64,000 nt of DNA. It comes from Candidatus Hydrogenedentota bacterium (GTDB lineage: Bacteria; Hydrogenedentota; Hydrogenedentia; Hydrogenedentales; SLHB01). The stretch is taken from the NCBI GenBank assembly GCA_045863295.1, contig BTWA01000005.1:128001-192000 (forward strand), written 5' to 3'. Made by a program: the position numbers and the translations under genes. Of the stretch, positions 9,940 to 28,880 are shown in pieces. The notes under the pieces are model-generated. The model was not told the origin of the DNA, did not search any database, and saw only the letters and a program-made list of their open reading frames with translations. Numbering within the stretch: position 1 is the first letter of the stretch; every line of letters starts with the position of its first letter.

Positions 9940-10108
9940 AGTGGGTGGGATTGGACTTGGGTCGGATTCTGTCGACTGACGGAGCGCGCTTTCGATTAAG
10001 CAATGCCAGCCAGATGTCGGTGCTCCAATGTGCCAGCACTGCCGGCGCACGACAAGCGTGAGATACAGACATTCCGGCGCAATCCAGATAGAAGTATGTG
10101 CTCCTCGG

Positions 10109-11797: not shown

Positions 11798-11822
11798 GGC
11801 TGCGTGCCGAACTCCCGTCCGG

Positions 11823-12914
11823 TCATTCTTCCACGGGTGCCGTATACTTGACGCCAACGGACTCCAGTTGTTTCATGAAGCCGTCCTTGTCCACGGCTTT
11901 TTTCCATGCTTCTTCCGGCTCCACGACATCCTCTTTGCACAGGCGCGCCAATTCGTCGTTGAGCAGCGTCATGCCTTCCTTCTTCGCGGTTTGCATGATG
12001 CTCATGATTTGCGAGGTCTTGGCTTCGCGAATTTGCGAGGATACCGCCTGATTCACGATTAGCACTTCGATGGCCGCCACGCGCCCTCCGCCTTTCTTCT
12101 TCAGCAAGTTCTGCGCGATCACGCCTTTCAAGGTGCCCGACAGCATGGTGCGGATTTGATCCTGTTGTTCCGCGGGGAACTGGTCAATCAAGCGATCGAC
12201 GGTGGATATGGCCGTGGTTGTATGCAGCGTGCCGAACACGAGGTGGCCGGTTTCCGCGGTTTCAATGGCGATGTGTGTCGTTTCCAGGTCGCGCATTTCG
12301 CCCACGAGCACGATATCCGGGTCTTCGCGCAGCGCCGCGCGCAAGGCCGCTTTGAAGCTCTTGGTGTGCGTGTGCACTTCGCGCTGGTTGATCAGGCACC
12401 GTTTGTTCTTGTGCACGAACTCGATGGGATCTTCAATGGTGATGATATGCTCACTGCGGGTTGCATTGATCCGGTCGATCAGCGCCGCCAGCGTGGTCGA
12501 TTTTCCGCTGCCGGTGGGTCCGGTCACAAGCACCAGCCCTTTGCCCAGCTGACAGAACTTCTTAACCGCCTCCGGCAGGTTTAATTGCTCGCACGTAAGA
12601 ATCGTGGAAGGTATCAGCCGGAAGACTCCGCCGATCCCCTTGTGATCCATGAACACATTGGAGCGGAACCGTCCTACGTCCGGTATCTCATGCGCGAAAT
12701 CGGTGTCATGCACCGCGGCGAACTCTTCCTGATTCTTGTGGGGCATAATTTCCCACAGCAGGTTTCTGACCGCGTCATCGGACAATTCTTCTTCACTGCG
12801 CAAGGCGACCATCGAGCCGTCTTTGCGGAAGATGGGTTTGTTGCCTGTGCACAAATGAAGGTCGGAAGCCCCATGGTCCACCATCATTTTCAAGTACTTG
12901 TCAATTACGGCCAT
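11823..12914 (-). CDS. pilT: Type IV pilus retraction ATPase
   Basis: ASDLHL, GPTGSGKSTT, TIEDPIE, LREDPDIVLVGEMRD, TGHLVFGTLH; start at MAVIDK (12914). Confidence 0.92.
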   Translation of the reverse strand: MAVIDKYLKMMVDHGASDLHLCTGNKPIFRKDGSMVALRSEEELSDDAVRNLLWEIMPHKNQEEFAAVHDTDFAHEIPDVGRFRSNVFMDHKGIGGVFRLIPSTILTCEQLNLPEAVKKFCQLGKGLVLVTGPTGSGKSTTLAALIDRINATRSEHIITIEDPIEFVHKNKRCLINQREVHTHTKSFKAALRAALREDPDIVLVGEMRDLETTHIAIETAETGHLVFGTLHTTTAISTVDRLIDQFPAEQQDQIRTMLSGTLKGVIAQNLLKKKGGGRVAAIEVLIVNQAVSSQIREAKTSQIMSIMQTAKKEGMTLLNDELARLCKEDVVEPEEAWKKAVDKDGFMKQLESVGVKYTAPVEE

Positions 12915-13132
12915 TTGTCCAGTCTCCCTTCCCGACCCCATTCGTACGGGCTCAAACGCTACCACCGTAACTTCAATGAAGCAAATCGTCGCACCGCGCG
13001 GCGGAAATTTGGGCAGTTTTCGCAATTTGGGCCGGAGCGGGGTAATGTCGCATCGCGTTGGCGGTACCATGACCGTGGGTGGTACTCTATTCATTGTGCG
13101 CAACAGAAAACGTTTGGCAAGTGGATAAACGA

Positions 13133-14686
13133 ATGGGTAATTACAGCATTCGACGGGCATTGGCCGCCTCGGCCTTAATCCTCCTTCTTGCCGTGTCCGC
13201 CTATGCTGACGTGACCGTCGGATTGGGCCAGGGTCAGGGTTGGGCGGGCGGCCTTGCCCAGACGCAAGTGAGTCTGCAGGGAAGTCCTGCTCCTGCGGTG
13301 TTGGAAATCCGTTTTTTGTTCGATTCCAACAAACTAGACCTGATCGGAGTGCAACCGGGTCCTGTCGTAACGTCTGCCAATAAGTCGCTCTCATGGGAGG
13401 AATCCCCTCCGGGCCGCGGCAAGATTGTGATTGTTGGTGTTAACACCCAGACCATGTCTAACGGGGTGTTGGCCAGTCTGCAATTTGCCATAAAGTCCGC
13501 GGCCCAAGCCGGCAACGTGATTACTCTCGATGGCGACTCCATGTCGGCCTCGGGCGCGGCGGGTGAAACCCAGGCGACGGTGTTGAACGACGGTCAGGTG
13601 ACCGTTGTGACCTGTTCGCAGCCGGCAACTCCAACCGGACTGACTGCAACCGATGGCGCACACCCCGACAGAGTGCATCTTGCTTGGGCTCCTGTAGCGA
13701 GCACATCGGAGTACGTGATTTACCGATCCACCTCGTCCAACGCACAGACGGCCACCGCAATTGCCACTGTGACGGCAACTGAGTATGACGACCGGTCGGC
13801 GGATGCGCCTGCCGCTGCCGCGGGATGTTCTCCGGGCGGAGTCAAGACCTATAGCTATTGGGTGGCGGCCAAAGCGCCGTGCGGGGAGAGCCCTTTCAGC
13901 GCCAGTGATACCGGTTTTCGCGGATTCGCGAAATTGGCGGTACAAGGCGCTGCAAAAGCGATGACCATGCCTCCGCCTGGGCTTGCCGTTGCCACAGGGT
14001 CGACGGCGGCCGTTCGCCTCACCGCACGGGATCCCATCGACCCGGCCACTTTATGGGGGCAGTTGGATGGGAGGGCGTATCCCGCTGAATGGGTCCCGGT
14101 TAACGAGCGCGACGGCTGGGCTTTGTGCCGCTTGGACGGATCGATAGCTGCGGGAGCTACTTTTATTTGGAGTGCCGGCGCGCGTTCGATTCGTGGTGAA
14201 CTGGTTGGACCGTTCAGTGCGGCCTTCCCGGTTTCGGACGGTGGGGACGCTTCCGATGCACTCCTATCCGATGTTCCTCCGCTGGCGACGGGCGTTGGGC
14301 CGATCCACGTTGTGGGCCCGATGCAAGTATATGACTTACCCTATGTTATCGACATATCCATTCCGGATGGCAGCGAGCCGTCGGAGGTTCAGTTATTTTA
14401 CTACCTTCAGAACGATACAGGCAGCGCCTGGTACCCGGCGGAGGACGTGGAAGGCTGGCTGGCTTCACCGATACAGCCGGTGACTGGCGAGGACGGCCGC
14501 GTTGTCTTGCGCGCCGCAGTCCACCATGGTGGTTTTGTTCAAGTGGGTGTTGGCCATGGTGAGGTACACGCCGCGGGTCTGTCAGGTGGTGTAGACGTAG
14601 CCGGGTTTTCGGGCTCAATCCTTGTCATTGTGCTCCTTTCACTTGCATGTTTGGCCTGCCGGTTTTTCCTTGCTGGCAAGGCCTGA
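13133..14686 (+). CDS. Surface protein: signal peptide, cohesin-like domain, FN3-like domain, C-terminal membrane anchor
   Basis: AYA signal cleavage site; FDSNKL..G....GVLASLQF (cohesin-like); PTGLTATDG...HLAW...YVIYRS (FN3); C-terminal hydrophobic helix plus basic residues. Confidence 0.65.
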   Translation: MGNYSIRRALAASALILLLAVSAYADVTVGLGQGQGWAGGLAQTQVSLQGSPAPAVLEIRFLFDSNKLDLIGVQPGPVVTSANKSLSWEESPPGRGKIVIVGVNTQTMSNGVLASLQFAIKSAAQAGNVITLDGDSMSASGAAGETQATVLNDGQVTVVTCSQPATPTGLTATDGAHPDRVHLAWAPVASTSEYVIYRSTSSNAQTATAIATVTATEYDDRSADAPAAAAGCSPGGVKTYSYWVAAKAPCGESPFSASDTGFRGFAKLAVQGAAKAMTMPPPGLAVATGSTAAVRLTARDPIDPATLWGQLDGRAYPAEWVPVNERDGWALCRLDGSIAAGATFIWSAGARSIRGELVGPFSAAFPVSDGGDASDALLSDVPPLATGVGPIHVVGPMQVYDLPYVIDISIPDGSEPSEVQLFYYLQNDTGSAWYPAEDVEGWLASPIQPVTGEDGRVVLRAAVHHGGFVQVGVGHGEVHAAGLSGGVDVAGFSGSILVIVLLSLACLACRFFLAGKA

Positions 14687-14948: not shown

Positions 14949-17900
14949 GTGTTGGATCGGGACCGAAACTTACTGTTCGGCGTTTTTGCTGTGCAGCTCA
15001 AGCTGGTGTCTCCTGCACAAATCATGGAGGTGGCTGCCGCTTGGGCGGTCGATCCGTCTCGCGATCTACCGGATCGGCTTCGCGATGCCCGTTTGCTGAC
15101 CGAGAGTGATTTCCAGCTTGTCCTTGATTTTGTAAACCGGGCGGTCGAGGCGCATCAAGGCAATCCATCCATGGCGTTGCAGCGATTCGGCGGCGAGGCG
15201 CTTGCCTACCAGTCGCTCCAACTTTCCGGGCCACAGACGGTCCCCGGAGAAACGGCGCGCGACACCAGCCCCGACGTGCTTGAGAATCTACTTTCTGAAG
15301 AACTCCCCAAGATACTGGAAACGACGGGTCGCTATTCGTTGAAGTCGGAACATGCGCGCGGCGGTCAAGGGCGCCTGTTGCTCGTGCACGACGAGCAGAT
15401 GGGCCGTGACATTATTTTGAAAGAGTTGTTGCCGTCCGGGAAGTCGGGCTTGGGAACGACGACGCCGATACGCCAGACGGCGAATCTGGTTTCGCGTTTC
15501 CTTCGCGAGGCCAAGATTACGGGGCAACTGGAGCATCCGTCCATCGTTCCCGTGTACGAATTGGGTTTGCGGCCCGAGGGCGTACCGTATTACACGATGA
15601 AGCTCGTGAAGGGCCGGACGTTATATTCTTCAATCCGCGGTCGCCACACGTTGGAAGAGCGGCTTGGCCTTTTGCGGAATTTTCTCGATCTTTGCGAGGG
15701 GGTGGCGTACGCGCACAGCCGTGGCGTGTTACATCGCGATCTCAAGCCGCAGAATGTCATGGTGGGGCAATTTGGCGAGACGGTCATTCTGGATTGGGGC
15801 CTGGCGAAGATAAAGGGTTCGCTGGACGACCGTGACGAGATTATCACGCAGATGATTTCCAAGCTGCGTATGGAGGAGACCGACCTCAAAGAGACCGCCC
15901 CGGATGCAATACTTGGCACGCCTGTGTACATGTCGCCTGAGCAGGCACGAGGCGATTTGAAGGCCGTGGACGAACGATCGGACATCTATTCGCTGGGGGT
16001 GACGCTGTATGAGGTCATTACCGGCAATATTCCTTACAAGAGCAGTTCCATGAAACAGGTCATGGAAGAAATCGTGACGAAGGATCCGCCGTCCTGCACG
16101 GCGGTGATTCCCGATGTGCCTCCGGAATTGGCGGCGATCTGCGATCGATGCCTTAAGCGGAAGAAGGAAGAACGATACCAGTCGGCGAAAGATCTGGCCG
16201 ACGACGTTGATCGATTTCTGTCGGGTGCTCTGGTCAAGGCCTATTCCTACAAAACCAGTGAGATACTTGCGCGGGTCTACAAGCGGCACCGGTCGATAAT
16301 CAATCTGGCGGCTGCCGCGTCGGCCGTCATCCTGATCACTATTGGCGTTTCCTACGTGCAGGTATTGCAGGCGCGCAACGAGGCGGTAATTGCTCGCGAC
16401 GATGCGCAATCCGAGAATTACGCGAACCAGATGTTGCTGACAGCGCAATACATGCAAGGTAACCACTACGATCTCGCGCGCCGGACGCTGTGGGAAACGG
16501 AAGAAGCCCTTCGGGACTGGGAATGGGGCTATCTGTTGAACCGGTGCAACGTCGAGTTGGCCGTGTTGGAGGATCGTGTTGGATTTGCGTTCCGTCCGGA
16601 CGGTTTGCAGATGGCGACGATATCCCGAAACCGTCCGATTGAAATCGTGAATGCGGCGACCGGGGAAGTGGTGCGCAACATCGCGGAGAGCGCGGTACGA
16701 CCGTTGGATATAGTCTATAGCCCGGACGGGTCGCTGCTTCTGGCTCCGACGATGAGCGGGGCGGTCATGATTTGGGACGCAGTTTCGGGCGATCGCAAAC
16801 GGGCAATTGCCGTGCCCGGAGCGGTGCCTGAACACGCCGCCTTTGATGCCGCCTCCAAGCGTATTGCCACAACGTGGGATGATGATTCCGTCCGGATCTT
16901 CGATGTGGAAACCGGGGCGAGTCTGGCCCAACTAGAGGGAAAAAAATCCGGTATTGGCAAACCGCAATTCAGCCCGGACGGAACGACCCTTGTGTGTGTA
17001 AGCAGTCAGGCCGGGGAGGCGTCGGCTTGGGCGGCCTATGTGCACGACAGTGCCACTGGGGCAATGTTGTTTTCTATTCCGGCGACTGTGGCACAGTTTT
17101 CGCCAGATGGAGCGTTTATCGTTGGAGCGAATCGAACGGGAATTCAGATTTATGAGGCCGGCGACGGAGAAGTCCGGGTAAAGCTGGCGGAGCATCCCGG
17201 ACTTATTGCGGATTTTTGCATATCGCGAGACTCCGGCTTCGTGGCGACCGGTTGCGCGGATGGGGTGGTGCGGGTATTTGATGTTCACACCGGCGAATTG
17301 CTTGGAGAATATAAAGGCGACAACCCGATACGGTTTGTTCGGATCAGTCCGGACAGTCAATATCTGCTGACGGCTACCCTGGACGGCAAACTGACCGTAT
17401 GGGACCGCAATACGGGTCAAGCAATCAACGAGATGCGCGGGCACACGGATCTCGTCCGGTTGGCCGATTTCAGTCCGGATGGATTGCGATTCGCGACCGC
17501 ATCGTTCGACCAGAGCGTGCGCGTGTGGGGCGTGGCGAGTTCGCCGGGGCAGCGTGTGCTGGCTAAGCCGGCGGCCAACGTGAATTTTGCGACGATCAGT
17601 AAGGACCGGTCGCAGTTGGCCGTGTTGTTAAACAACCGCACTTTGGAGATTCGGCGCATCGCGGACGGATCGACCGTAGCGAATTTCGCCGGGCATGGAC
17701 AAAAAGGCGGATTCGCCGCATCGTTCAGCCCCGACGGCGCGCAGTTGGTGGCCGCTCTCGACGACCATACGCCGACCGTTTGGGATATTGCCGCGGGAAC
17801 TGTGGTTACGCAACTCAATGGACATCGCGGAGCCGTACATGGTCTGGCGTACCGCCCCGACGGCGGGACCATTGCCACCGCATCGTGGGACGGAACGGCC

Positions 17901-19277
17901 CGAACGTGGTCTGCTTCGGACGGTAGTGCCCTGTTCACCATGGAAGGGCATGAAGGACCCGTGTTGTGCGTGGCGTTCAGTCCCGACGGAAAACAGATCG
18001 CCTCTGGGTCGAAAGACAAGACCGTACGCCTTTGGGACGCGGCCACCGGCGTTGCGATTCGCACGTTTACCGGCCATTCCGACGCCGTAAGAGGGATTCT
18101 TTTCTGCCGGCTTTCGAATCGCCTGATCAGTTGTTCGGAGGATGGCACGATTCGGTTTTGGGATTTGAGTACAGGAGGAACCGTACTTACGTTGGAAGGT
18201 CACGAGCAGTCGGTACACCGTGTTGCGATGAGTGGGGATGAGCAGCGGCTGGTATCCTCGGCAATCGACGGCACCTTCAAGGTTTGGAAAGTAGAGACCG
18301 GGGAGGCGCTGGCAACGGTAAAGGCAGCCGAGGGCTTTTTGTGGATCGCATCGTTCGATTCTACGGGCCGGGTCATTGTGTCCGCGTCAGCGACCGGGGC
18401 GATCCGGGCTTGGGAGGCCGTTCCGTGGCACGCATCGGATTTGCCCGGGGACACGAGCATGACCGTTCCGCAGCGGGTCGAGGCATTTAGGGCAGCGCAA
18501 TTGGAGGCCGGCGTTGCTCCCGCAAAGCCGGATAAAGTTCACATTATTGTCGCGATTACCCGAGACGACTTGATCGAGGGGATTGGCCGTCTCGCCGATG
18601 GAATAGAGGCTTCCGTGAAATCCATTGTTCCAGCGGCTGTGTTGACGCCCGAGCCCGTCGTGGTAGACGATCGATTGTACGGCGCGGTGGCCAAGCTGTG
18701 TATGAAGCGAGGCGATCAGATTCACGAGATTGGATCCGTGACAGTGCATCCGGACGATTCGTCGGTTGCGGGTCTGCGCCAACTGGCGCAATCCATCGGA
18801 ACGACGGATACGCTTCCCCTAGTGCGGATCACACGGGGCGTTGACACTATCGAATTGCAGCCGGTGGTGGTGACGCGACGAACTCGCGAGGAAGTAGTCT
18901 CCGTACCACGAGCCCGGCTGCAAGAGTATCTCGACAAACAGGTGGAGTATCTGAAATCGAATTCGGCAGGTGTCCTCAAGAAGAGCCGGGCCGATGCCGC
19001 TGAATTGGGAGAGTTGCCCGAGGGTCAGGAGATTCGCGGAATCGTATTCGATACTGACGCCGATCGGATGCCGCAAACGTTGTTGCAGTCAGTTGGACTT
19101 TCCCAAGGGGATCGCCTGATGGTGCTGGAAGGCAAACCGGTAATTTCCTATAGCCTAGCGGTGCAGACGCTGATCGAATTGCAGTCGCGCGCCCACGGTA
19201 GCGAGCCGGTGTCCATTTCCGCGGAAGTACATCGTGGCAATCTGGAAACGGTGCGGCTTAACATACAAATAGAGTGA
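14949..19277 (+). CDS. Large Ser/Thr kinase - hydrophobic helix - WD40 beta-propellers - PDZ-like C-terminus
   Basis: GTG start after GAGGGA; RGGQG, ILKE, HRDLKPQN, DWGLAK, GTPVYMSPE; many GH..V..FSPDG..SxDxT.RxWD repeats; LGL..GDxL..G.PV PDZ-like segments. Confidence 0.9.
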   Translation: MLDRDRNLLFGVFAVQLKLVSPAQIMEVAAAWAVDPSRDLPDRLRDARLLTESDFQLVLDFVNRAVEAHQGNPSMALQRFGGEALAYQSLQLSGPQTVPGETARDTSPDVLENLLSEELPKILETTGRYSLKSEHARGGQGRLLLVHDEQMGRDIILKELLPSGKSGLGTTTPIRQTANLVSRFLREAKITGQLEHPSIVPVYELGLRPEGVPYYTMKLVKGRTLYSSIRGRHTLEERLGLLRNFLDLCEGVAYAHSRGVLHRDLKPQNVMVGQFGETVILDWGLAKIKGSLDDRDEIITQMISKLRMEETDLKETAPDAILGTPVYMSPEQARGDLKAVDERSDIYSLGVTLYEVITGNIPYKSSSMKQVMEEIVTKDPPSCTAVIPDVPPELAAICDRCLKRKKEERYQSAKDLADDVDRFLSGALVKAYSYKTSEILARVYKRHRSIINLAAAASAVILITIGVSYVQVLQARNEAVIARDDAQSENYANQMLLTAQYMQGNHYDLARRTLWETEEALRDWEWGYLLNRCNVELAVLEDRVGFAFRPDGLQMATISRNRPIEIVNAATGEVVRNIAESAVRPLDIVYSPDGSLLLAPTMSGAVMIWDAVSGDRKRAIAVPGAVPEHAAFDAASKRIATTWDDDSVRIFDVETGASLAQLEGKKSGIGKPQFSPDGTTLVCVSSQAGEASAWAAYVHDSATGAMLFSIPATVAQFSPDGAFIVGANRTGIQIYEAGDGEVRVKLAEHPGLIADFCISRDSGFVATGCADGVVRVFDVHTGELLGEYKGDNPIRFVRISPDSQYLLTATLDGKLTVWDRNTGQAINEMRGHTDLVRLADFSPDGLRFATASFDQSVRVWGVASSPGQRVLAKPAANVNFATISKDRSQLAVLLNNRTLEIRRIADGSTVANFAGHGQKGGFAASFSPDGAQLVAALDDHTPTVWDIAAGTVVTQLNGHRGAVHGLAYRPDGGTIATASWDGTARTWSASDGSALFTMEGHEGPVLCVAFSPDGKQIASGSKDKTVRLWDAATGVAIRTFTGHSDAVRGILFCRLSNRLISCSEDGTIRFWDLSTGGTVLTLEGHEQSVHRVAMSGDEQRLVSSAIDGTFKVWKVETGEALATVKAAEGFLWIASFDSTGRVIVSASATGAIRAWEAVPWHASDLPGDTSMTVPQRVEAFRAAQLEAGVAPAKPDKVHIIVAITRDDLIEGIGRLADGIEASVKSIVPAAVLTPEPVVVDDRLYGAVAKLCMKRGDQIHEIGSVTVHPDDSSVAGLRQLAQSIGTTDTLPLVRITRGVDTIELQPVVVTRRTREEVVSVPRARLQEYLDKQVEYLKSNSAGVLKKSRADAAELGELPEGQEIRGIVFDTDADRMPQTLLQSVGLSQGDRLMVLEGKPVISYSLAVQTLIELQSRAHGSEPVSISAEVHRGNLETVRLNIQIE

Positions 19278-19399
19278 TTTCTGGGGCTGTCCATTGCACC
19301 ATCATGATTTCCCAATGCCCAATGCTGGGAAAAAAGGTGGAGGATTCGCCAGGAAGCGGTCAGTACGTGTGCAATGCCTTGAGCGATCCATGCCTCTAG
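19274..19399 (+). pseudogene. 41-codon ORF or 3' remnant carrying the C-terminal motif of the downstream paralog family
   Basis: Manual translation: (GTG)ISGAVHCTIMISQCPMLGKKVEDSPGSGQYVCNALSDPCL*. The last 30 nt are 25/30 identical to the end of gene 19444-20262. The GTG overlaps the kinase TGA. Confidence 0.7.
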
Positions 19400-19443
19400 A
19401 GCAGCGGAAGTGTTGATGACAACCAACTCCAAGGAGACCGACC

Positions 19444-20262
19444 ATGAGTTACCCGCCCACCGACTTGCCTCACAGTTGTCAGGCTTCGCTATGGATAGCA
19501 CAACAAGCGTTTCCTGCACGGTCGATGGAGTATATCTACGACCTGCCGCTTTACACCGACAACAATTCCGGGTTGCTCGATGTCATGTACGATTTTCTCG
19601 AGGGTACAGCGGACTATACGTATGTGTCCCAGAAGCGCAACAAAGAGATACGGGATTCGATTGATGTTTTCAGGGGCGAAAACACTGCGGGAGACAAGAT
19701 ACAGACGATCAAGCAGATGTTGCGAACGGGAAAGCGGCGCAGCAATGCCAATCCGGGGTCTAAAACACTAAGCGGCTTTTTGCGTGTGATGTTGGACTCT
19801 GGCATTTACTTCGCGAACAACCACACGAATTTGAACAAGGTCAACGAGGTAAAAGCGCTGCTGGATGGAACGGATCCCTATGACACTCCCCTTTGGGACA
19901 TGACGGGAAGTATCGAGGGTGGCCCGCAGAATATCCGATTTGGGAGCTTGACCTATGAGCAATTGTTCAACACGCAACTCCGGAAATTGGATAAAACGCT
20001 TTTCCGGGCTGTGCGGCGAGCGAAGCGGTTGAGCGTGCTCTGGTGCGATGTCACACAACGGTACACCGGCGATCCCGGCGGATCGATCTTCAAAGGGCTG
20101 CCGGACGACATAGTGAAGAAAGGCGGCGACGGAAACGATCAATGTTGTTACAACGGCGCATGCATCACATCTGAGTTTCCCGGCGACTACTGCGGCCAGA
20201 TAGACGATGGCACGGGGACCGGCACGTTTACGTGCAACGCGTTGAGCGATCCGTGCCACTAA
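19444..20262 (+). CDS. Uncharacterised protein with six-Cys C-terminal tail, paralog 1
   Basis: AAGGAG RBS; shares YPP-LP-SC-LW, IY-PLY, NNHT, LWD, AVRRAKR and SDPCH with the next two ORFs. Confidence 0.9.
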   Translation: MSYPPTDLPHSCQASLWIAQQAFPARSMEYIYDLPLYTDNNSGLLDVMYDFLEGTADYTYVSQKRNKEIRDSIDVFRGENTAGDKIQTIKQMLRTGKRRSNANPGSKTLSGFLRVMLDSGIYFANNHTNLNKVNEVKALLDGTDPYDTPLWDMTGSIEGGPQNIRFGSLTYEQLFNTQLRKLDKTLFRAVRRAKRLSVLWCDVTQRYTGDPGGSIFKGLPDDIVKKGGDGNDQCCYNGACITSEFPGDYCGQIDDGTGTGTFTCNALSDPCH

Positions 20263-20303
20263 CCTGACCACAAGTTGACCGAAACCCAACAAGGAGACCA
20301 CGC

Positions 20304-21173
20304 ATGCCGTACCCGCCAGCACACTTGCCTGAAAGTTGTCAGCTTACGTTGTGGCTGGCAGAGTATTGCTTTGTCACGGTATCGCCTGGGCCCATTTTTA
20401 CACCGCATTCGCTTCAGACAATTTATCGGACTCCTTTGTACACCACGTCCGGCGCGCCTGGGATATTGAACATACTCAAGGAGGCGTTTAAGGCCAACCC
20501 GACCTTGCCGCCGCAAGGTTCACCCGCGCCGCCCATCGGCAACTACATTACGCCGGCAAGGCGAGCCCGCGTCGTGAAAGCGATCGATGTCTTTGCGCTT
20601 GGCGGCGCCAATGCACTGACCATAGAGCAAATGCTGATTCAGGGCATCCGGCGAAATCGCGATGCACGAACCCCGCGGACCCTGGAAGGGATTCTCAAAG
20701 TGTTGGCGAACAACGGCATCTACCTGGCCAACAATCACACGTCGCCGAGCGCCAGGACGGAAATCGAGACTCTTTTGGTGGGACGTGCCGGCCTTGAGAG
20801 CAGTCTGTGGGATTATATGGGGACGCTGGGGGCAGGGGGCAATGTTCAGTTTGGCAGCATTACGATGCGGCAACTCTTTGAGACTCCTGCTGCGAACCTG
20901 ACGGGCGAGTTTTTCCTTGCGGTTCGGCGAGCGAAGCGGATGGGTATTTTGTGGGCGCATCCGAGGTACAGCGCGATTGGCGACCCGACGGGTATCGCAC
21001 TTGCGTCGGCTTCTGGATTTGAGGGCGCCGCCATGTTCTACGGCCGGGAAGGCAACAAGAAGTGCTGTTATGAAGGCGCCTGCTGGGATTCCGAGGACGA
21101 CGACGACTATTGCGAACCGGTCGAGGGAGTCAATCCGCCGGTATGCAATGCGATGAGCGATCCGTGTCATTGA
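20304..21173 (+). CDS. Uncharacterised protein with six-Cys C-terminal tail, paralog 2
   Basis: AAGGAG RBS; same conserved motifs as paralogs 1 and 3. Confidence 0.9.
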   Translation: MPYPPAHLPESCQLTLWLAEYCFVTVSPGPIFTPHSLQTIYRTPLYTTSGAPGILNILKEAFKANPTLPPQGSPAPPIGNYITPARRARVVKAIDVFALGGANALTIEQMLIQGIRRNRDARTPRTLEGILKVLANNGIYLANNHTSPSARTEIETLLVGRAGLESSLWDYMGTLGAGGNVQFGSITMRQLFETPAANLTGEFFLAVRRAKRMGILWAHPRYSAIGDPTGIALASASGFEGAAMFYGREGNKKCCYEGACWDSEDDDDYCEPVEGVNPPVCNAMSDPCH

Positions 21174-21229
21174 ACTAAGAGAAGCCGGTTGCGGAACTGG
21201 CGTATCGGGTACTTAGAAGGAGAGTTTGC

Positions 21230-22075
21230 ATGGCCTATCCCCCATCCAACCTGCCGAAGAGTTGCCGATTGACCTTGTGGCTGGCGGAGAGCGCCTATAA
21301 CGTGTCTGTGCCCACCCATGACAATCCCAACAACACCCGGGCACGAACCCTGCGAGAGATTTACGAGTTACCGCTTTATGGAGGCAATGCCGGGCTGCTG
21401 GACCTGATGTACAATCACATAAACAATGCGTCGAACTGGCGCGACTACATGACGGATACGGTGCGTTCCGATATTCTGAATGCCATTGTGAGATTCAAAG
21501 AGAAGGACCAAGACCGCAGTCACCGCTTTACGATTCGTAAAATGCTGCGAGACGGCGAACGGCGGAGCAACGCGAATCCTGGCGCCGGCACGTTGTCTGG
21601 CTTTCTGCGCGTCATGCTCAACAATGGGGTGTACTTCCCGAACAATCACACTGACGAAGACAAGTTGGGCGCAATCGGTGACATTTTGGATGATCCCAAG
21701 CCCGGCAAGACTCCGCTTTGGGACATGGAAGGCGAGATCAAGGATCTTGGCAAGTACAAGTTTGGCGATTTAACCATGAAGATGTTGTTTGAAACCCCGC
21801 TCAAGAAACTCGACCGGGAATTGTTTCGTGCAGTCCGTAAGGCGAAGCGCATGGGCATTATGTGGGCCGATTTGAAGTATAGGGAAATTGGCAATCCAAA
21901 ACCGGTAAGTGGCAAGCGAGATGACCAAATCGAGATGCTGTTTTACGGTGAGGAGAACCAGAATTGTTGTTTTCAAGGCACTTGTTGGCCCTCCGACGAT
22001 CATGACGATTATTGCGGCGCCATTGAGGGTAGCAATCCACCTGAATGCAGCGCCATGAGTGACCCTTGCCACTAA
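21230..22075 (+). CDS. Uncharacterised protein with six-Cys C-terminal tail, paralog 3
   Basis: AAGGAG RBS; same motifs; RRSNANPG.-TLSGFLRVML is shared with paralog 1. Confidence 0.9.
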   Translation: MAYPPSNLPKSCRLTLWLAESAYNVSVPTHDNPNNTRARTLREIYELPLYGGNAGLLDLMYNHINNASNWRDYMTDTVRSDILNAIVRFKEKDQDRSHRFTIRKMLRDGERRSNANPGAGTLSGFLRVMLNNGVYFPNNHTDEDKLGAIGDILDDPKPGKTPLWDMEGEIKDLGKYKFGDLTMKMLFETPLKKLDRELFRAVRKAKRMGIMWADLKYREIGNPKPVSGKRDDQIEMLFYGEENQNCCFQGTCWPSDDHDDYCGAIEGSNPPECSAMSDPCH

Positions 22076-22097
22076 ATTGAAGTGCATTTGTGATTTG

Positions 22098-22134
22098 TTG
22101 CCCATCGGCGATCCGTCTCGGTGGGCAATTTTTT
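22098..22134 (+). terminator. Rho-independent terminator closing the paralog array
   Basis: TTGCCCATCG ... CGGTGGGCAA stem followed by TTTTTT. Confidence 0.85.
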
Positions 22135-22186
22135 CCTATCACCACTATTCGATTCCGCAAAACCCTACTTGTAGTAACACTTTCCG

Positions 22187-22321: not shown

Positions 22322-22591
22322 ATGTCGCCGGATGTGGTTATTAACTTGGGCCGTGACGCGATGCTCGTCACGTTGCTGGTTTCAGCACCGATGCTGCTAT
22401 CCGGGATGATTGTCGGGCTCGTTATCAGCATCTTCCAGTCGGTCACCCAGATTCAGGAAATCACGCTCACCTTCGTGCCTAAAATTGTGGTGGTGATGGT
22501 GGCGTTTCTGATTTTTCTTCCTTGGATGATGTCGGTATTGCTGGGATTCGTACAACCCTTGTTTGGCGAGTTCGGGACTATCTTGTTCTGA
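22322..22591 (+). CDS. fliQ: Flagellar export gate protein FliQ
   Basis: GLVISIFQSVTQIQEITLTFVPK. Confidence 0.95.
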   Translation: MSPDVVINLGRDAMLVTLLVSAPMLLSGMIVGLVISIFQSVTQIQEITLTFVPKIVVVMVAFLIFLPWMMSVLLGFVQPLFGEFGTILF

Positions 22592-22645
22592 ATCTCGTGC
22601 AGGGCAGCCCCCGTAGCCTTTGGCTGCGGGAGTCGAAAGGCACTG

Positions 22646-23416
22646 ATGGTATTTGAGGTCGAAGTATTCAAGGTCTTTGCGCTGGTGATGATACGTTTCA
22701 GCGGGCTGATCGTGTCGGCGCCCATCCTTGGATCCAACAATTTTCCGGTGATGGCGAAGGCGGGTCTGGCGGCGTTTTGCGCGTTGCTGATCACGCCGGT
22801 GTTGCCATCTTTGCCCGAGCCTTTGCCGGACACGGTGCTGGGACTCGCCGCGATGGGCGTTGGTGAACTGCTCATCGGGTTGATGATGGGGTTTGTGATG
22901 ACGTTGCTGTTTGCCGCGATTCAGGTGGGCGGGCAAATCATCGACATGCTCAGCGGGTTCGCGTTGATGAACATCTTCAATCCGGCCCTGGAAACGCAGG
23001 TGCCCATTTTTGGTTTCTTTTTGTTCATCATGGCGACGCTGTACCTGTTGGTTTTGAATCTCCATCACGTAATGTTGCGCGCGTTGGCGGCGACGTTTGA
23101 CAAGATACCGCTGGGCGGTTTCGTGGCGAATCCCGCGTTGCTTCGTGAAGTGAGCACGTGGGGCAGCGCGATGTTCTATGACGGTCTGTTGATAGCTGCT
23201 CCAGTGACGGCGGCGCTGCTTTTGACGTATGTGACGATGGGGCTGTTGGGGCGGCTGGTGCCTCAATTGCATTTGTTCGTGGTTGGATTTCCGTTGACGA
23301 TTGGCATGGGGCTTCTGGTGGTGGCTTTCTCGATCGGCCTGTATCTGCAGGTGGTCGACGGCATGTATCACCGGATGATCCAGAACTTGACCGTGGTTGT
23401 ACGAGGGATGGCTTAA
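22646..23416 (+). CDS. fliR: Flagellar export gate protein FliR
   Basis: R.SGL..AP, GELLIG, GQIID..SG, LNLHH, RLVPQL..VGFP. Confidence 0.93.
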   Translation: MVFEVEVFKVFALVMIRFSGLIVSAPILGSNNFPVMAKAGLAAFCALLITPVLPSLPEPLPDTVLGLAAMGVGELLIGLMMGFVMTLLFAAIQVGGQIIDMLSGFALMNIFNPALETQVPIFGFFLFIMATLYLLVLNLHHVMLRALAATFDKIPLGGFVANPALLREVSTWGSAMFYDGLLIAAPVTAALLLTYVTMGLLGRLVPQLHLFVVGFPLTIGMGLLVVAFSIGLYLQVVDGMYHRMIQNLTVVVRGMA

Positions 23417-23419
23417 CGC

Positions 23420-24538
23420 ATGGCGGAAGACCTAGGCGGAGAGAAGACATTACCCGCGTCGCCACGGAAGATCAGTCAGGCGCGCGAGGAAGGAAACGTC
23501 GCCAAGAGCGCTGATTTGAACGCAGCGCTGGCGCTTCTTGTCGCCGCGTTCGGCCTGTGGTACATGGGCCGCGAATTGATGGAACGCATGGTGCATACCA
23601 CCGCGGTGTACTTCGAGAACATCGGCACATTTGAAGTGACGGTTGAGAACGCGGTGGACGTGGCCGTGGATGTGACCCAACGGTTGGGCGTGTTGGTGCT
23701 GCCGTTGGCCATACTGTTGACGGTGGCCGGCCTGGCCGTGAATTTTCTGCAGGTGGGGTTTTTGTACGCCCCGAAGGCGCTGCAGCCCAAATTCAGCCGT
23801 TTGAATCCGATTGCGGGATTCAGCCGGTTCTTTAAACTGCGCACGCTGGTGGATTTGATCAAGTCGTTGCTGAAAGTGGCGATTGTTACCTGGATCGTGT
23901 ATCTGACGCTGCGCAGCCGGATGGACGATTTGTTGTTGTACATGTTTTTGACGCCGCTTGGCATTACGCACCAAATGGCCGATTTGATTTACCTTGTGTG
24001 GCTGCGCGCCGCGGGGGCCATGTTGATTCTCGGACTGCTCGACTTTGGTTTTCAGAAGTGGCAGTACAACAAAGACCTGATGATGACCGTGCAGGAGATG
24101 AAAGAAGAGAACAAGCAGATGGAAGGCGATCCGCGCATCAAACAGCGCATTCGCCAGATCCAACGCCAGATGGCGATGCAGCGGATGATGAAAGAAGTGC
24201 CGAAGGCGGACGTCATCATCACCAACCCGATTCGATTTGCGGTGGCGATCCGGTATGACATGGGCAACATGGCGGCGCCGGTGGTTGTGGCCAAAGGCGC
24301 GCGTTTGCTGGCCAAGCGCATCCGCGAAATCGCGATGGAGAATCAGGTGCCCATTATCGAGAAACCGGAATTGGCCCGGGCTCTGTATAAGGAAATAGAA
24401 GTGGGCCATCCGATTCCGGAGAAGTTGTTCAAGGCGGTCGCGGAAGTACTTGCGTTCGTGTACCGGATCGATCGCCGGCAGGAAAAGATTCGCGAACGGC
24501 AGGCGAGCATGGTCCGTCCGACGTACGCGACGCAATAG
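23420..24538 (+). CDS. flhB: Flagellar export switch protein FlhB
   Basis: EKT..SPRK..AREEGNV, EGDPRIK, TNPIR, APVVVAKG, LARALY. Confidence 0.95.
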   Translation: MAEDLGGEKTLPASPRKISQAREEGNVAKSADLNAALALLVAAFGLWYMGRELMERMVHTTAVYFENIGTFEVTVENAVDVAVDVTQRLGVLVLPLAILLTVAGLAVNFLQVGFLYAPKALQPKFSRLNPIAGFSRFFKLRTLVDLIKSLLKVAIVTWIVYLTLRSRMDDLLLYMFLTPLGITHQMADLIYLVWLRAAGAMLILGLLDFGFQKWQYNKDLMMTVQEMKEENKQMEGDPRIKQRIRQIQRQMAMQRMMKEVPKADVIITNPIRFAVAIRYDMGNMAAPVVVAKGARLLAKRIREIAMENQVPIIEKPELARALYKEIEVGHPIPEKLFKAVAEVLAFVYRIDRRQEKIRERQASMVRPTYATQ

Positions 24539-24608
24539 ACGCGAGAGCAATAGGATTTGAGCGCTTCCCGCGAACGGGGAAGTACTCTTATTTGAGCGAG
24601 GGAATACT

Positions 24609-26702
24609 TTGGCGGTAGTGCCCCGGGAAATGACGATGCAGCCGGACACCGGCTGGTCGCGTATGCTGCGCAATCAGGATTTGGCGCTGGCGGTTGCCGT
24701 TGTGCTGATCCTGGCGGTGCTATTCATTCCCGTGCCCGCGATCGTGCTCGACGTGTTGCTGACACTCAATATTTCCCTTTCGGTGGTCATTCTCCTGGCG
24801 ACGTTGTATCTACGCGAACCCGTGGAATTTGCGGTATTTCCCTCGTTGTTGCTGATGTTGACCCTATTCCGGCTGAGCTTAAACGTAGCTTCGACCCGTC
24901 TTATACTCTCGGATGCAAGCGCCGGAAACGTAATTGACGCATTCGGAACTTTTGTGACGAGCGGAAGCTATGTTGTCGGCGTTGTTATTTTCTCCATTCT
25001 GGTTGTGATTCAATTCGTGGTCATTACGCGCGGCGCCACGCGCATCTCCGAAGTGGCTGCGCGGTTTACGTTGGACGCCATGCCCGGCAAGCAGATGGGC
25101 GTGGACGCGGATTTGAACGCGGGTCTTATCACGGAAGAACAGGCTCGGGCACGGCGGCACAAGATCGAGCGCGAAGCCGATTTCTATGGAGCGATGGACG
25201 GCGCGACGAAGTTCGTTCGCGGCGAGGCCATTGCTGGACTCATCATTACGCTTATCAACATCTCGGCGGGTTTCATTATCGGCATGCTGATGATGGGCAT
25301 GGACGTATCCGAATCCGCCGCCATCTATACCCGGCTTACGATTGGCGATGGCCTGGTTTCGCAGATTCCTTCGCTTCTGGTGTCCACGGCGGCAGGCATG
25401 ATTGTCACGCGGGCGGTTTCGGAAGACAACCTGGGTTCGGATCTGACGCGTCAGATGACGCGTTATCCCCGGGCCTTGGGGATAGCGGCGCTGATGCTGG
25501 CTGGCTTTGCCGTAGTGCCGGGAATGCCGACCGTACCGTTCCTGCTGGTGGCCGGATTTCTGGGCATGCTTGCGTTTCAAACGACGCAAGCGTTGAAAAG
25601 AGAAGAAGCGCAGGCCGTGGCCGAGAAGGCGATGGAAAAGGAAATCGCGCCGGAGCAGGCTGCTCCGCGCACGGAAGATTTGCTCACGGTGGATCCGCTG
25701 AAGATTGAGTTGGGATACGGATTGATTTCGCTTGCAGATCCCAAACAGGGCGGCGATTTGTTGACGCGTGTTCAGATCATCCGGCAACAGTTGGCGACCA
25801 AGCTGGGGATAATTGTGCCGGTTGTGCGCATTGTCGACAACATGCGCCTGAAGCCATCGGAATACCGCATCAAGATACGCGAAGCGGAAGTGGCCCGTTA
25901 CGAATTGATCACTGATCGCTACCTCGCCATGAATCCCGGTCTTGTAGACGAAGAAGTGCCGGGCGTGGCGACCAAAGAGCCAGCTTTTGGGTTGCCCGCG
26001 GTTTGGGTGTCCGACGAATACCGGCATCGCGCGGAGCTGATGGGATATACGATTGTGGAACCGACGGCGGTGTTGGCTACTCACCTGACCGAAATCCTGA
26101 CTGGTCACGCGGATGAACTATTGACACGTCAGGACGTGCGCAATCTGGTGGATCATGTAAAAGAGTCGGCGGCGTCCGTGGTTGAAGAACTGACACCGGG
26201 AATACTTTCACTCGGTGAGATACAGAAAGTGCTTCAGAACTTGTTGCGGGAGCGCGTTTCCATCCGGAATTTGGAGAGCATTCTGGAGGTGTTGGCGGAC
26301 TTTGGTCCGCGAACGCGCGATCCCGAGTTGCTGACGGAATATTCGCGTCATGCCTTGGCCCGTCAGATCAGCGCCGAGTATGCCGATGAAGACGGCGCAT
26401 TGCGTGTGGTTACGCTTGCACCCAATGTCGAGCGCGAGATATTGGATGCGATACAGCAGAGCCAAACCGGCGAATATATTCCGTTGCCCCCCTCGCGCGT
26501 GGACGAATTAGGGCGAAAGACGGTGGACGCCGTTCAGTCCCTGGTGATGGCGGGATACGAGCCTGTAGTGCTGACGTCCGCGCAGGTCCGGCGCTATTTC
26601 AAGCGGATTGCGGATCGGCACATGCCAAAGATAGTTGTGTTGTCCTACAATGAAATCGATCCGGCTGTGCGGCTGGAAAGCGAAGGACAGGTGAGCGCTT
26701 AA
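24609..26702 (+). CDS. flhA: Flagellar export protein FlhA
   Basis: FPSLLL, EVAARFTLDAMPGKQM, FYGAMDGA, TIGDGLVSQIP, LLRERVSIRNL; exact start (TTG 24609 or a nearby ATG) uncertain. Confidence 0.95.
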   Translation: MAVVPREMTMQPDTGWSRMLRNQDLALAVAVVLILAVLFIPVPAIVLDVLLTLNISLSVVILLATLYLREPVEFAVFPSLLLMLTLFRLSLNVASTRLILSDASAGNVIDAFGTFVTSGSYVVGVVIFSILVVIQFVVITRGATRISEVAARFTLDAMPGKQMGVDADLNAGLITEEQARARRHKIEREADFYGAMDGATKFVRGEAIAGLIITLINISAGFIIGMLMMGMDVSESAAIYTRLTIGDGLVSQIPSLLVSTAAGMIVTRAVSEDNLGSDLTRQMTRYPRALGIAALMLAGFAVVPGMPTVPFLLVAGFLGMLAFQTTQALKREEAQAVAEKAMEKEIAPEQAAPRTEDLLTVDPLKIELGYGLISLADPKQGGDLLTRVQIIRQQLATKLGIIVPVVRIVDNMRLKPSEYRIKIREAEVARYELITDRYLAMNPGLVDEEVPGVATKEPAFGLPAVWVSDEYRHRAELMGYTIVEPTAVLATHLTEILTGHADELLTRQDVRNLVDHVKESAASVVEELTPGILSLGEIQKVLQNLLRERVSIRNLESILEVLADFGPRTRDPELLTEYSRHALARQISAEYADEDGALRVVTLAPNVEREILDAIQQSQTGEYIPLPPSRVDELGRKTVDAVQSLVMAGYEPVVLTSAQVRRYFKRIADRHMPKIVVLSYNEIDPAVRLESEGQVSA

Positions 26703-26703
26703 C

Positions 26704-27996
26704 ATGGATCAGAAGCTGAGCCGTTATCGGGGTGACACGTTGGACGAAGCCTACGCGGAGATGCGCAGGGCCTTGGGGCCTGATGCGATTGTGCTGCGCA
26801 CGGCGTTTGTGCGTGAGGGCGGTCTCAGGGGATTTCTGGGCAAGAAGCGCGTTGAATTGACGGCCACCCACGCAGATGCGCCCGGAACATCCGATCGGCG
26901 GAAGAGCCCGATGGAGCGGAAGTACTCGGCTCAGATGAGCGGTCCGGACTCCAAGATTGGCTCGGACGAGCGCGTTGCGGATTCAGTGGCTCATTTCCAG
27001 CGCATGTTGACGGATGCGAGGCCTCGGGTGGGTAGTGGCCGCACATTTTCGCCGAGTATGCGGGGCAACGCGGCCATAGCCGTGGATGATAGTCCGATGG
27101 TCAGGGCGTTGCGCAGCGAGATACGCGAAATGCGATCGCTGATGGAAGTGCTGGTGGCCGAGAGTTCCTCAGAGACGGCGGCACCGGAGTATGCGCCCCA
27201 GTATCGGATGCTTGTGGAATCAGGCGTTTCGCGGGAGGCTGCGGCCTCACTGCTGGCACACGTGGCGCGCACGAGCGATGCGGACGTGATCCGGCGGCCT
27301 GAGGTGTTTCAACAACGCATCCACAACGAGATCCAGAAGCGGGTTTCGGTTACTGGTGGGGTTCGTGTCCGGCTTGGCACGTGCCGTAAAGTGGCGCTTG
27401 TAGGACCTACAGGCGTGGGAAAAACGACCAGCATTGCGAAGATGGCCGCCCGGCTTGCCGTGCATTCCAGGGCGCGCGTGGCCTTGATCACGGCCGACAC
27501 CTATCGCGTTGCGGCGCCGGATCAGTTGCGCGTGTATGCGAATATTATTGGCGTTCCCCTCCATGTGGTTCATGACAGCCGGGAGATGGCGGACGCTATT
27601 TTGGCGGTGAAGGACTATGATTTGGTCCTGATCGACACGGCTGGGGGCAGTCCGTTCAATACCACTCAAATTGGGGAGTTGGGTCAGGTGCTTCATGCCG
27701 CGTACCTCGACGAGGTCATGCTCGTGCTCGCGGCGAATACACGCGTGGAAGACATGCGGCACGCCGTGACGCATTTTGGCGCGCTTCGCCCCACGTCGAT
27801 ACTGTTTTCGAAACTGGATGAAACCACGTCGTATGGCGCCATATACACGATGGCGGAAGATACGGATTTACCATTGAGTTACTTCAGCACGGGTCAGAGC
27901 GTACCGGAGGACTTTGTAGCGGCAAAACCAGAGACAGTGGCGGGCCTGCTTTTTGACGGAACCAAAACCATGGCGGCGCTCACGCGCGAACCGTAG
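26704..27996 (+). CDS. flhF: SRP-family GTPase FlhF
   Basis: LGPDAIVL N-terminus, GPTGVGKTT, DTYRVAA, DTAG, SKLDET, GQSVPED. Confidence 0.92.
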   Translation: MDQKLSRYRGDTLDEAYAEMRRALGPDAIVLRTAFVREGGLRGFLGKKRVELTATHADAPGTSDRRKSPMERKYSAQMSGPDSKIGSDERVADSVAHFQRMLTDARPRVGSGRTFSPSMRGNAAIAVDDSPMVRALRSEIREMRSLMEVLVAESSSETAAPEYAPQYRMLVESGVSREAAASLLAHVARTSDADVIRRPEVFQQRIHNEIQKRVSVTGGVRVRLGTCRKVALVGPTGVGKTTSIAKMAARLAVHSRARVALITADTYRVAAPDQLRVYANIIGVPLHVVHDSREMADAILAVKDYDLVLIDTAGGSPFNTTQIGELGQVLHAAYLDEVMLVLAANTRVEDMRHAVTHFGALRPTSILFSKLDETTSYGAIYTMAEDTDLPLSYFSTGQSVPEDFVAAKPETVAGLLFDGTKTMAALTREP

Positions 27997-28007
27997 GAAT
28001 TCTTATC

Positions 28008-28880
28008 GTGTCGGACCAGGCGAGCAATCTTCGGGAATTCATACGCGACAACAAACGTGGGGCGCGAGTATTTGCCGTCACGAGTGGCAAAGGTGGCGTC
28101 GGCAAGACCAGCACGAGCATCAATCTTGCGATCGCGCTCGCGCAGCGGCAGTCACGCGTTGTGGTATTGGACGCGGATTTGGGTCTGGCCAATGTCGAAG
28201 TGATGCTTGGTTTGAATTCCGTTTACAACTTGCAGCACGTGATCACCAATGAACGCAGCATGATGGACATCCTTGTGCAGGGGCCGGGCGGTATCGAGAT
28301 CGTTCCCGGAAGCTCGGGGATAGCCCGGATGGTGGACTTGGGACCGCGCGCCCGGCAAAACGTGTTGAATGGGCTTCGCGATCTTCAGGCGAAGACGGAC
28401 TTCATTATCATCGACACCATGGCGGGGATTGGCCAGAATGCCGTGGCGTTTGCAGCGGCTGCCGACGAAGTGCTGCTGATATCAACACCGGAGCCGTCGT
28501 CTATTGTCGATGCGTATGCGACAGCCAAGACGATATTTCAATTGCGCGAAGATGCTTTTATACGCCTCATCGTGAACCAGGCGGGCAGTGCGCAACAGGC
28601 GCAAGCCGTGGCCGACAAGTTGGTGGCTGTAGCGCAGCAGTTTCTTGCGCGCAAGCTGCATTTCCTGGGTTGGATACCGCGGGATCCCCATGTGCAACAA
28701 GGTATCATGCAGTCGTACCCGTTTTACTTGCGGTTTCCGCACGCCCCGGCGTCCAAGGCGCTTGATGAGATTTCCGAACGCCTGCACCAGCAACGCCCGC
28801 AAACCGTGGATCGGCAACGGGCCGGCGGCGGCTTTTTCAGACGCATTGCGGAGAATCTGGGACTCGCGGGCAATGGCTGA
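28008..28880 (+). CDS. flhG: MinD-like flagellar number regulator FlhG/FleN
   Basis: DQASNLR N-terminus, SGKGGVGKT, DADLGLAN, TPEPSSIVDAY. Confidence 0.92.
   Translation: MSDQASNLREFIRDNKRGARVFAVTSGKGGVGKTSTSINLAIALAQRQSRVVVLDADLGLANVEVMLGLNSVYNLQHVITNERSMMDILVQGPGGIEIVPGSSGIARMVDLGPRARQNVLNGLRDLQAKTDFIIIDTMAGIGQNAVAFAAAADEVLLISTPEPSSIVDAYATAKTIFQLREDAFIRLIVNQAGSAQQAQAVADKLVAVAQQFLARKLHFLGWIPRDPHVQQGIMQSYPFYLRFPHAPASKALDEISERLHQQRPQTVDRQRAGGGFFRRIAENLGLAGNG

Follow-up and report, generated by a model that had tools for sequence, protein, structure and literature searches.

Ser/Thr kinases whose genes are linked to that of an accessory protein are already known as a kind of arrangement. WD40-ectodomain receptor Ser/Thr kinases are abundant in some bacterial phyla and, to our knowledge, almost none of them has a known input or output. 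In Streptomyces, the kinase AfsK carries C-terminal beta-propeller repeats. KbpA, the product of a gene adjoining afsK, is reported to bind the unphosphorylated kinase and to prevent it from autophosphorylating (PMC6988585). In the PknG-GlnH-GlnX system of Actinobacteria, as presented in a second report, the genes adjacent to the kinase gene encode proteins that supply the kinase with an outside signal (PMC11032199). Here, we analyze a stretch of 64,000 nt from a Candidatus Hydrogenedentota bacterium (assembly GCA_045863295.1, contig BTWA01000005.1, positions 128,001 to 192,000), hereafter the window. It carries three tandem paralogous genes whose products all end in a six-cysteine tail, and directly upstream of them the gene of a receptor-type Ser/Thr kinase. 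A sequence-only reading of the window had singled out the three paralogs as a candidate undescribed system.

The likeness to AfsK-KbpA is one of role: in both cases, the gene of a Ser/Thr kinase has as its immediate neighbor the gene of a fairly small soluble protein, which in the case of KbpA acts on the kinase. Unlike that pair, the window kinase spans the membrane and ends in a tandem of PDZ domains, and its candidate partners bear a putative Cys knot and are often duplicated. PknG likewise has its partner proteins encoded beside it. However, these partners are a classical exported protein that binds solutes (GlnH) and a membrane protein (GlnX), whereas the window family has no such folds and mostly lacks export signals. 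In the libraries searched, three elements appear undescribed: the accessory family itself, the fold predicted for it, and the strictness with which it is paired with a receptor kinase of the WD40-PDZ type.

The Kinase and the Cysteine-Tailed Proteins Form One Genetic Module

The kinase and its partner or partners form one genetic module. About 38 arrays of family members were counted in the fetched loci, seven of which lie on contigs or stretches too short to judge. In 28 of the 31 assessable loci, all from one small phylum, an orthologous kinase of about 1450 aa adjoins the array. The sequence-only reading had asked for conserved neighbors; there is one, the 1442-aa kinase upstream of the array, which it had missed. 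The kinase gene is upstream on the same strand in 26 of the 28 linked arrays and divergent in two (G099 and G095). A kinase-domain match, with 46-59% identity, is visible in 24. For the four others (G015:C31, array A of G117, G116, and G051), the WD40 or PDZ part alone is visible: the kinase piece stands at a contig or stretch end in the first three and is an isolated C-terminal piece in G051. Where a genome harbors two or three modules, as in G117 and G121, each kinase is paired with its own member or members. Family members found by profile search also adjoin the kinases of G045 and G051. Queried with a single sequence, the C-terminal region of the kinase was single-copy where found, that is, in 14 of the 133 genomes of the order. 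Genetically, a single kinase subfamily is thus paired one to one with a single family of partners, for which the predicted structure is confident. In three loci, the partner kinase appears as two or three overlapping open reading frames (ORFs) or as the C-terminal piece only (L031, G019:C128, 4918-8933; L043, G015:C120; L042, G051:C4); these split kinases may result from frameshifts, assembly errors, or decay.

The kinase gene of the window occupies positions 14949-19277 of the + strand. Its 1442-aa product comprises, in order, an N-terminal domain (residues ~1-125), the kinase domain, a transmembrane (TM) helix, WD40 propellers, and a C-terminal PDZ tandem. The Pfam model Pkinase covers residues 179-412, and there are matches to many WD40 propeller models. 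The TM helix, read from the sequence, is predicted at about residues 449-472, as a hydrophobic stretch following the basic patch YKRHR. The tandem PDZ region corresponds to the last 278 residues (1165-1442; 18441-19274, + strand). Pfam alone gave nothing significant for this C-terminal region; by contrast, a profile of 10 kinase orthologs compared with PDB sequences matched the PDZ tandem of an Aquifex RseP homolog in two stretches (E 6.6e-9) and the PDZ domains of DegP/DegQ (E 1e-5). The kinase is collinear over its full length with those found beside relatives in three other genomes, with 35-39% identity.

In four aligned kinases of the subfamily, D-W-G is found at about residues 282-284, the place of the D-F-G motif usual in Hanks kinases; further catalytic motifs, HRDLKP and the Lys of ..LKEL.., are present. 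The N-terminal domain (14949-15323, residues 1-125) is also conserved (RNLLFG..AVQL...SP....E.AAAWA.DP ...). It has no Pfam match and its best profile match among PDB sequences has an E value of 0.5; visual inspection suggests a possible resemblance to the paired-helix repeats of GspE/MshE N-domains. In kinases of this architecture, the kinase domain is predicted to be cytoplasmic and the WD40 part periplasmic, according to PMC11032199.

Three Tandem Paralogs with a Conserved Cysteine Tail

The array consists of three adjacent ORFs on the + strand, ORF1 (19444-20262), ORF2 (20304-21173), and ORF3 (21230-22075), encoding proteins of 272, 289, and 281 aa with 40-46% pairwise identity. The description given by the sequence-only reading holds in its details. 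An AAGGAG ribosome-binding site precedes each ORF (19431-19436, 20291-20296, and 21217-21222, + strand), each time with a 7-nt spacer before the ATG, and every motif listed as shared is present in the aligned copies. The six-Cys tail reads CC-x4-C-x9-C-x13-C-x6-CH in ORF1 (residues 234-272; DNA 20143-20262) and CC-x4-C-x9-C-x10-C-x6-CH in ORF2 and ORF3 (21063-21173 and 21965-22075, respectively). The first 70 residues show neither a twin-arginine (Tat) motif nor a hydrophobic stretch, in agreement with the reported lack of signal peptide and TM helix. As an in-frame TGA lies upstream of ORF1 (19417-19419), its N-terminus is not longer than annotated. The array is closed by an intrinsic-terminator-like hairpin of 12 G+C-rich bp followed by U6 (22097-22135, + strand), with a predicted energy of -18.8 kcal/mol and a z-score against shuffled sequences of -2.44. 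A simple consensus terminator scan did not pick it up because its loop exceeds 8 nt.

The three copies match a three-sequence profile with E values of 1e-139 to 1e-148, and their similarity is therefore not due to chance. Nor is the array an assembly artifact, since near-identical sludge-metagenome contigs from other studies bridge the junctions between the remnant described below and ORF1 (19356-19546), ORF1 and ORF2 (20083-20877), and ORF2 and ORF3 (21039-21409). Searched with the full profile and with a tail-only profile, the genome of the window contains only these three copies. Between the kinase gene and ORF1, a 31-codon ORF (19304-19399, + strand) ends with ...YVCNALSDPCL-stop. When aligned, the last ~30 nt of this short ORF closely resemble the 3' ends of ORF1, ORF2, and ORF3; the tail profile at E <= 1 did not match it. 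Judging from this alignment, it is probably what remains of a fourth copy that was deleted; that it is a mini-gene in its own right is less likely. Such a relic tail is a sign of gene turnover within the array.

To define the conserved features of the family, 44 sequences were aligned: the three of the window, 24 from genomes, and 17 metagenome representatives, leaving out the fragments P0006 and P0023 and three duplicates. The sequence-only reading would have been contradicted by homologs that routinely lack the tail and occur singly with no conserved neighbor. What we observed is a tail in all 44 sequences, next to the kinase linkage reported above. C235, C250, and C264 are found in 44 of 44 sequences and C240 in 41, while a 43-sequence MAFFT alignment gives N231, C235, C240, C250, and C264 as invariant. 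The tail contains all five invariant residues of the family and is its most conserved part. The same four Cys are invariant in an alignment of 26 tails, in which the second Cys gap, counted by eye, varies from 7 to 14 residues. Of the 44 sequences, 27 have C234 together with C271 and 17 have neither; none has one of them alone. From this distribution, the six-Cys tail can be described as a four-Cys core plus a branch-specific pair. The tails of the four-Cys branch end in ...MSD, with no Cys after the Ser.

All statements on phylogeny derive from a quick tree. The three copies of the window form one clade (Shimodaira-Hasegawa approximate likelihood ratio test support of 99), which indicates lineage-specific duplication followed by long divergence. 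Of the "old, selected diversification" proposed earlier, it is this long divergence after duplication that stands. The three copies of G123 also form one clade, whereas those of G117 and G120 interleave, indicating that tandem expansion happened repeatedly. Two changes are needed on this tree to explain the C234/C271 pair, and the approximately unbiased test does not reject a single four-Cys clade (p 0.475). The co-occurrence of these two residues suits a disulfide or a staple between the tail ends; as the test indicates, it may also reflect a single event, on which the pairing argument would then rest.

A Rare, Undescribed Family

The tailed proteins constitute a rare, undescribed family, whose assessable loci come from one small phylum. 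At E <= 0.01, neither Pfam nor NCBIfam matched any of the three ORFs; up to E = 1, there were just two rows, with E values of 0.078 and 0.12, far below the curated cut-offs. At E <= 0.01, none of 43 family members showed a domain match apart from Tat-signal models, which matched one member each. The sequence-only reading had recognized no family, and the hit to a characterized family that would speak against it was looked for with profile, Pfam, and NCBIfam searches, none of which returned one.

A profile HMMER search of 1,835,955,588 representative proteins gave 27 matches at E <= 1e-3. Three are the window proteins, 22 are matches of 139-345 aa in a single stretch, which span the profile to its last positions, and two are long repeat proteins. 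In the latter, P0021 (1111 aa) and P0025 (842 aa), profile positions ~34-70, the I-Y-x-x-P-L region, are matched eight to nine times each; they may carry an unrelated repeat or one built from this segment. A word-indexed search of 5.8 billion clusters retrieved only the three window proteins themselves, and a cluster look-up of 10 relatives returned a name for none of them. The ESM Atlas gave no usable match, its rows at 0.90 being unnamed clusters at noise level. Among PDB sequences, the best match of the family profile (CTP synthase, E 0.039) is not significant. A metagenome scan with the Tat-bearing P0009 yielded a single contig of 1.3 kb, which matched over 43 residues and gave no context, and a genome scan with the G120 member retrieved that member's own record alone. 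A literature search gave no mention of the partner family, nor did a search of the text of PMC11032199.

Within the phylum, the 43-sequence profile (E <= 1e-4) matched 29 of 135 genomes. When the genome of the window is left out, these matches fall in four of fifteen taxonomic families (14/53, 3/14, 1/1, and 10/15 genomes). The remaining eleven families have no match (e.g., 0/23 and 0/10), several of the negative genomes being incomplete.

The Predicted Fold

The full-length AlphaFold2 model of paralog 1, based on 25 aligned sequences, has a predicted local distance difference test score (pLDDT) of 87.4 and a predicted template modeling score of 0.85. It consists of an all-helical domain (residues ~10-195), a disordered linker (208-228, pLDDT <50), and a four-stranded mini-domain (233-265, pLDDT >90) packed against the helical domain. 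The organization put forward from the sequence, a Cys-framework tail joined by a variable linker to a conserved domain, is thus recovered. A tail-only model built from 26 sequences shows the same four strands (pLDDT 84), and in both models the four invariant Cys lie on two beta-hairpins, as in a candidate zinc-ribbon-like or Cys4 metal-binding mini-domain.

A Foldseek search of the full-length model against the PDB found no match (best E 0.64). VIA-align over 48,161 chains gave a best Z of 2.3, where models without a clear match typically reach 7-8. For the tail-only model, whose 48 residues leave little search power, the best Foldseek E value was 5.5 and VIA-align returned no match at Z >= 2. 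From these predictions, the fold is probably new.

A Proposed Cytoplasmic Partner of the Kinase

Our preferred reading, to which we give a probability of about 0.42, is that of a cytoplasmic kinase partner, substrate or modulator, with a Cys knot stabilized by metal or cross-links. The family is probably dedicated, as a genetic partner, to a single subfamily of Ser/Thr kinases that span the membrane. The window proteins would stay in the cytoplasm, as suggested by the lack of an export signal: neither Sec or Tat signal nor TM helix is found in 37 of the 44 members, including all three of the window. Placed on the output side, they would be phosphorylated by the kinase or would bind and modulate its N-terminal or kinase domain in the cytoplasm, in the manner of KbpA with AfsK. 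As for the tail, it would form a structural knot, held by a Cys4 metal site or by two cross-links and packed onto the helical domain; the branch-specific pair C234/C271 would staple its two ends, and it would not be released as a peptide. The metal-binding tail proposed by the sequence-only reading may be correct. Tat is a route for pre-folded, often cofactor-bearing proteins, and a cytoplasmic fold that is sometimes exported by Tat would fit a metal site slightly better than disulfides. The occurrence of one fold, with four invariant Cys, both with and without a Tat signal is a puzzle that bears on the handling of metals and disulfides across compartments. A complex prediction of a member with kinase residues 1-440 and the PDZ tandem scored 0.00; made without controls, it is uninformative either way.

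Several observations weigh against a cytoplasmic partner. The putative partnership with the kinase is deduced from linkage, binding and phosphorylation being predictions only, and three arrays have no kinase neighbor (G015:C158, G015:C267, and G013:C4). No Ser or Thr is invariant in the family; S268 is conserved in at least 90% of the sequences but lies inside the folded tail. In the window tails, the Cys spacing (C-x4-C ... C-x10/13-C) is unlike the CxxC of classical zinc ribbons. A scripted scan complemented by reading by eye identified twin-arginine export signals in seven of the 44 relatives (G099_2, G095, P0004, and P0008-P0011). Some of these Tat-bearing members belong to the same well-supported clade as the signal-less member of G016, which suggests that part of the family, at least, works outside the cytoplasm, on the side of the WD40 and PDZ domains of the kinase. 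Of the S8 proteases encoded next to two relatives, one has a Sec-like signal and the other a Tat-like one. Finally, PDZ domains typically read C-termini, and the conserved extreme C-terminus of the family, together with the PDZ tandem of the kinase, would fit a periplasmic ligand better than a cytoplasmic substrate.

Less Likely: An Extracytoplasmic Ligand or a Controlled Effector

These last points are at the heart of an alternative that we consider rather unlikely, in which the protein or its disulfide-knotted tail acts on the input side as an extracytoplasmic ligand or co-sensor read by the WD40 and PDZ parts of the kinase. In its detailed form, which is just as doubtful, the C-terminus (...C-N/S-x-M-S-D...) would dock in the PDZ groove, and the rapid divergence on both sides, with the recurrent tandem duplication, would mark co-evolving ligand-receptor pairs. 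The PDZ domains of DegS, DegP, and RseP read exposed C-termini. Like these sensors, the kinase has an RseP/DegP/DegQ-like PDZ tandem, facing a family whose hallmark is a conserved C-terminus; unlike them, its tandem is fused to a kinase and not to a protease, and the candidate ligand is mostly signal-less. The WD40 part, predicted to be periplasmic in such kinases, would be on the side of such a ligand. The seven Tat-bearing members and the export signals of the two S8 proteases also point outward. In G099:C10 (L035, 7702-9647, - strand), one copy of a tandem pair is Tat-bearing and the other signal-less, an arrangement that would allow piggy-back export of a heterodimer. However, besides the absence of signals from 37 of the 44 members, there is no upstream room for one: the in-frame stop precedes ORF1, and the DNA upstream of the G016 member contains no relic signal in any frame.

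Two further observations are in favor of a ligand. The both-or-neither pattern of C234 and C271 (27 vs. 17 sequences) is that expected of a disulfide pair, but it is explicable by the single event discussed above. Within the module, evolution is fastest in the members and in the PDZ tandem, with mean Kimura distances of 3.00 and 3.24, respectively, compared with 0.68 for the kinase domain. A mirror-tree comparison of 17 kinase-member pairs gave weak correlations of 0.25-0.38, about equal for all four kinase regions; with the kinase domain controlled for, the partial correlations do not reach significance (p 0.08-0.17). As the distances are saturated, this comparison does not tell the regions apart. 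Moreover, the C-terminus is modeled within the folded mini-domain and not as a free strand. The shared C-terminal signal suggested by the sequence-only reading survives solely in this form, a C-terminus read by the PDZ tandem, and even so conflicts with the absence of export signals.

If the proteins were ligands, they would represent a new mode of bacterial signaling. In plants, the single-pass receptor Ser/Thr kinase SRK is linked to genes of fast-diverging Cys-framework proteins, SCR/SP11. It seems improbable that the module is a bacterial counterpart of such receptor-kinase/Cys-rich-ligand pairs, with export by Tat in some lineages and by piggy-back or another route in others, a C-terminus read by the PDZ/WD40 ectodomain, and private specificities for cell-cell or kin signaling arising from lineage-specific duplication and fast co-divergence. 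The domains are unrelated, the window proteins are of ~270 aa compared with ~50-80 aa for SCR, and the bacterial pair is known here from genes alone.

We hold it to be about as improbable that the proteins are effectors or enzymes controlled by the kinase. The helical domain would have an activity of its own that the kinase switches, and duplication would have produced a diversified set of effectors serving, for instance, in conflict or defense. The tight linkage to a sensor kinase and the repeated lineage-specific duplication would suit such a role, as would the similarity of the kinase to PD-T4-6 defense kinases in PADLOC. This similarity is generic, however, and limited to the universal kinase domain, and the family members match none of the 5027 PADLOC models. 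The candidate catalytic residues, Cys12 and the His of NNHT, suspected by the sequence-only reading, and the Asp of LWD, are not found family-wide. Only 34 of the 44 sequences have Cys12, and in 16 of the 17 members of the four-Cys branch H-F-C-x-P-F takes the place of the NNHT/LWD region. The AlphaFold2 model matches no enzyme fold.

An Unlikely Reading as a Processed Precursor

It is very improbable that the proteins are self-processing precursors, or precursors akin to ribosomally synthesized and post-translationally modified peptides (RiPPs), a reading that casts the helical domain as an oversized leader and the Cys tail as a core cut at the linker, possibly modified, and released, because no maturase was found among the neighboring ORFs scanned, no precursor model matches, and the tail is conserved and integral to the modeled fold. 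This first model of the sequence-only reading could draw on the disordered, variable linker separating the two parts, on the serine proteases that adjoin four relatives, and on an S-x-x-C motif in the six-Cys branch, whose occurrence near the gene of a kinase is loosely reminiscent of the kinase-dependent route to lanthionines. The four-Cys branch, however, has no Cys after the Ser, and the only linked kinase is of the receptor type without a lyase or cyclase domain. A Pfam scan of 17 large ORFs of the window (6143-34793) found no radical-SAM enzyme, LanM/KC/L, YcaO, cyclase, or lyase, nor did the same scan find such a maturase among 34 neighbor ORFs of seven related loci. Of the co-occurring enzymes that the sequence-only reading had in mind (kinases, peptidases, and radical-SAM enzymes), the kinase is thus the one that accompanies the family, radical-SAM enzymes were not found, and the proteases are restricted to one genus (4 of ~38 arrays). 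SCIFF and ranthipeptide precursors also have six Cys within ~40 C-terminal residues. Unlike them, the window proteins have a folded N-domain of 200 aa instead of a short leader, a conserved tail, and no radical-SAM maturase nearby, and neither Pfam nor NCBIfam matched a precursor model (SCIFF/ranthipeptide, NHLP/Nif11-type, or lanthipeptide) to the three ORFs or to the 43 members. A tail that is the most conserved region of the protein is the opposite of most RiPP cores, and its modeling at pLDDT >90 on the N-domain also speaks against a released core.

The four protease neighbors are of two kinds. In G013:C22 (L032, 9861-11159, - strand), an S8 subtilase with a Tat-like RREFLK start lies between the kinase and the member, and in G015:C158 (L028, 2454-3902, - strand) an S8 subtilase with a Sec-like signal adjoins the member. 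Homologous GDSG proteins of 313-325 aa are encoded just downstream of members in G015:C31 (L029, 3847-4821, + strand) and G015:C267 (L030, 9128-10066, + strand). They are chymotrypsin-like, are weakly similar to a Glu-specific protease of the S1 type (E 4e-4), and have no Pfam match and no signal peptide.

Surroundings of the Array

Downstream of the array, positions 22322-28880 (+ strand) carry fliQ, fliR, flhB, flhA, flhF, and a MinD/FlhG-like gene. This cluster contains no fliP, the only FliP match in the assembly being at the end of another contig (G000 C4:184-780, - strand). Flagellar genes follow the array in the window only; in related loci, unrelated genes lie downstream, such as those for glycine cleavage, DUF1559 proteins, and TPR proteins. 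A flagellar linkage of the array was rejected, as it is not conserved in the related loci and the terminator separates the array from fliQ.

On the other side of the receptor kinase gene, a second, unrelated Ser/Thr kinase is fused to an FGE-sulfatase (sulfatase-modifying-factor) domain (10109-11857, - strand). The 579-aa ORF that overlaps it on the opposite strand (10028-11767, +) has no Pfam match and is probably spurious. Next to it, the ORF of an ATPase of the type II secretion/type IV pilus type (11823-13394, - strand) overlaps by ~300 nt with that of a cohesin-domain protein (13079-14686, + strand).

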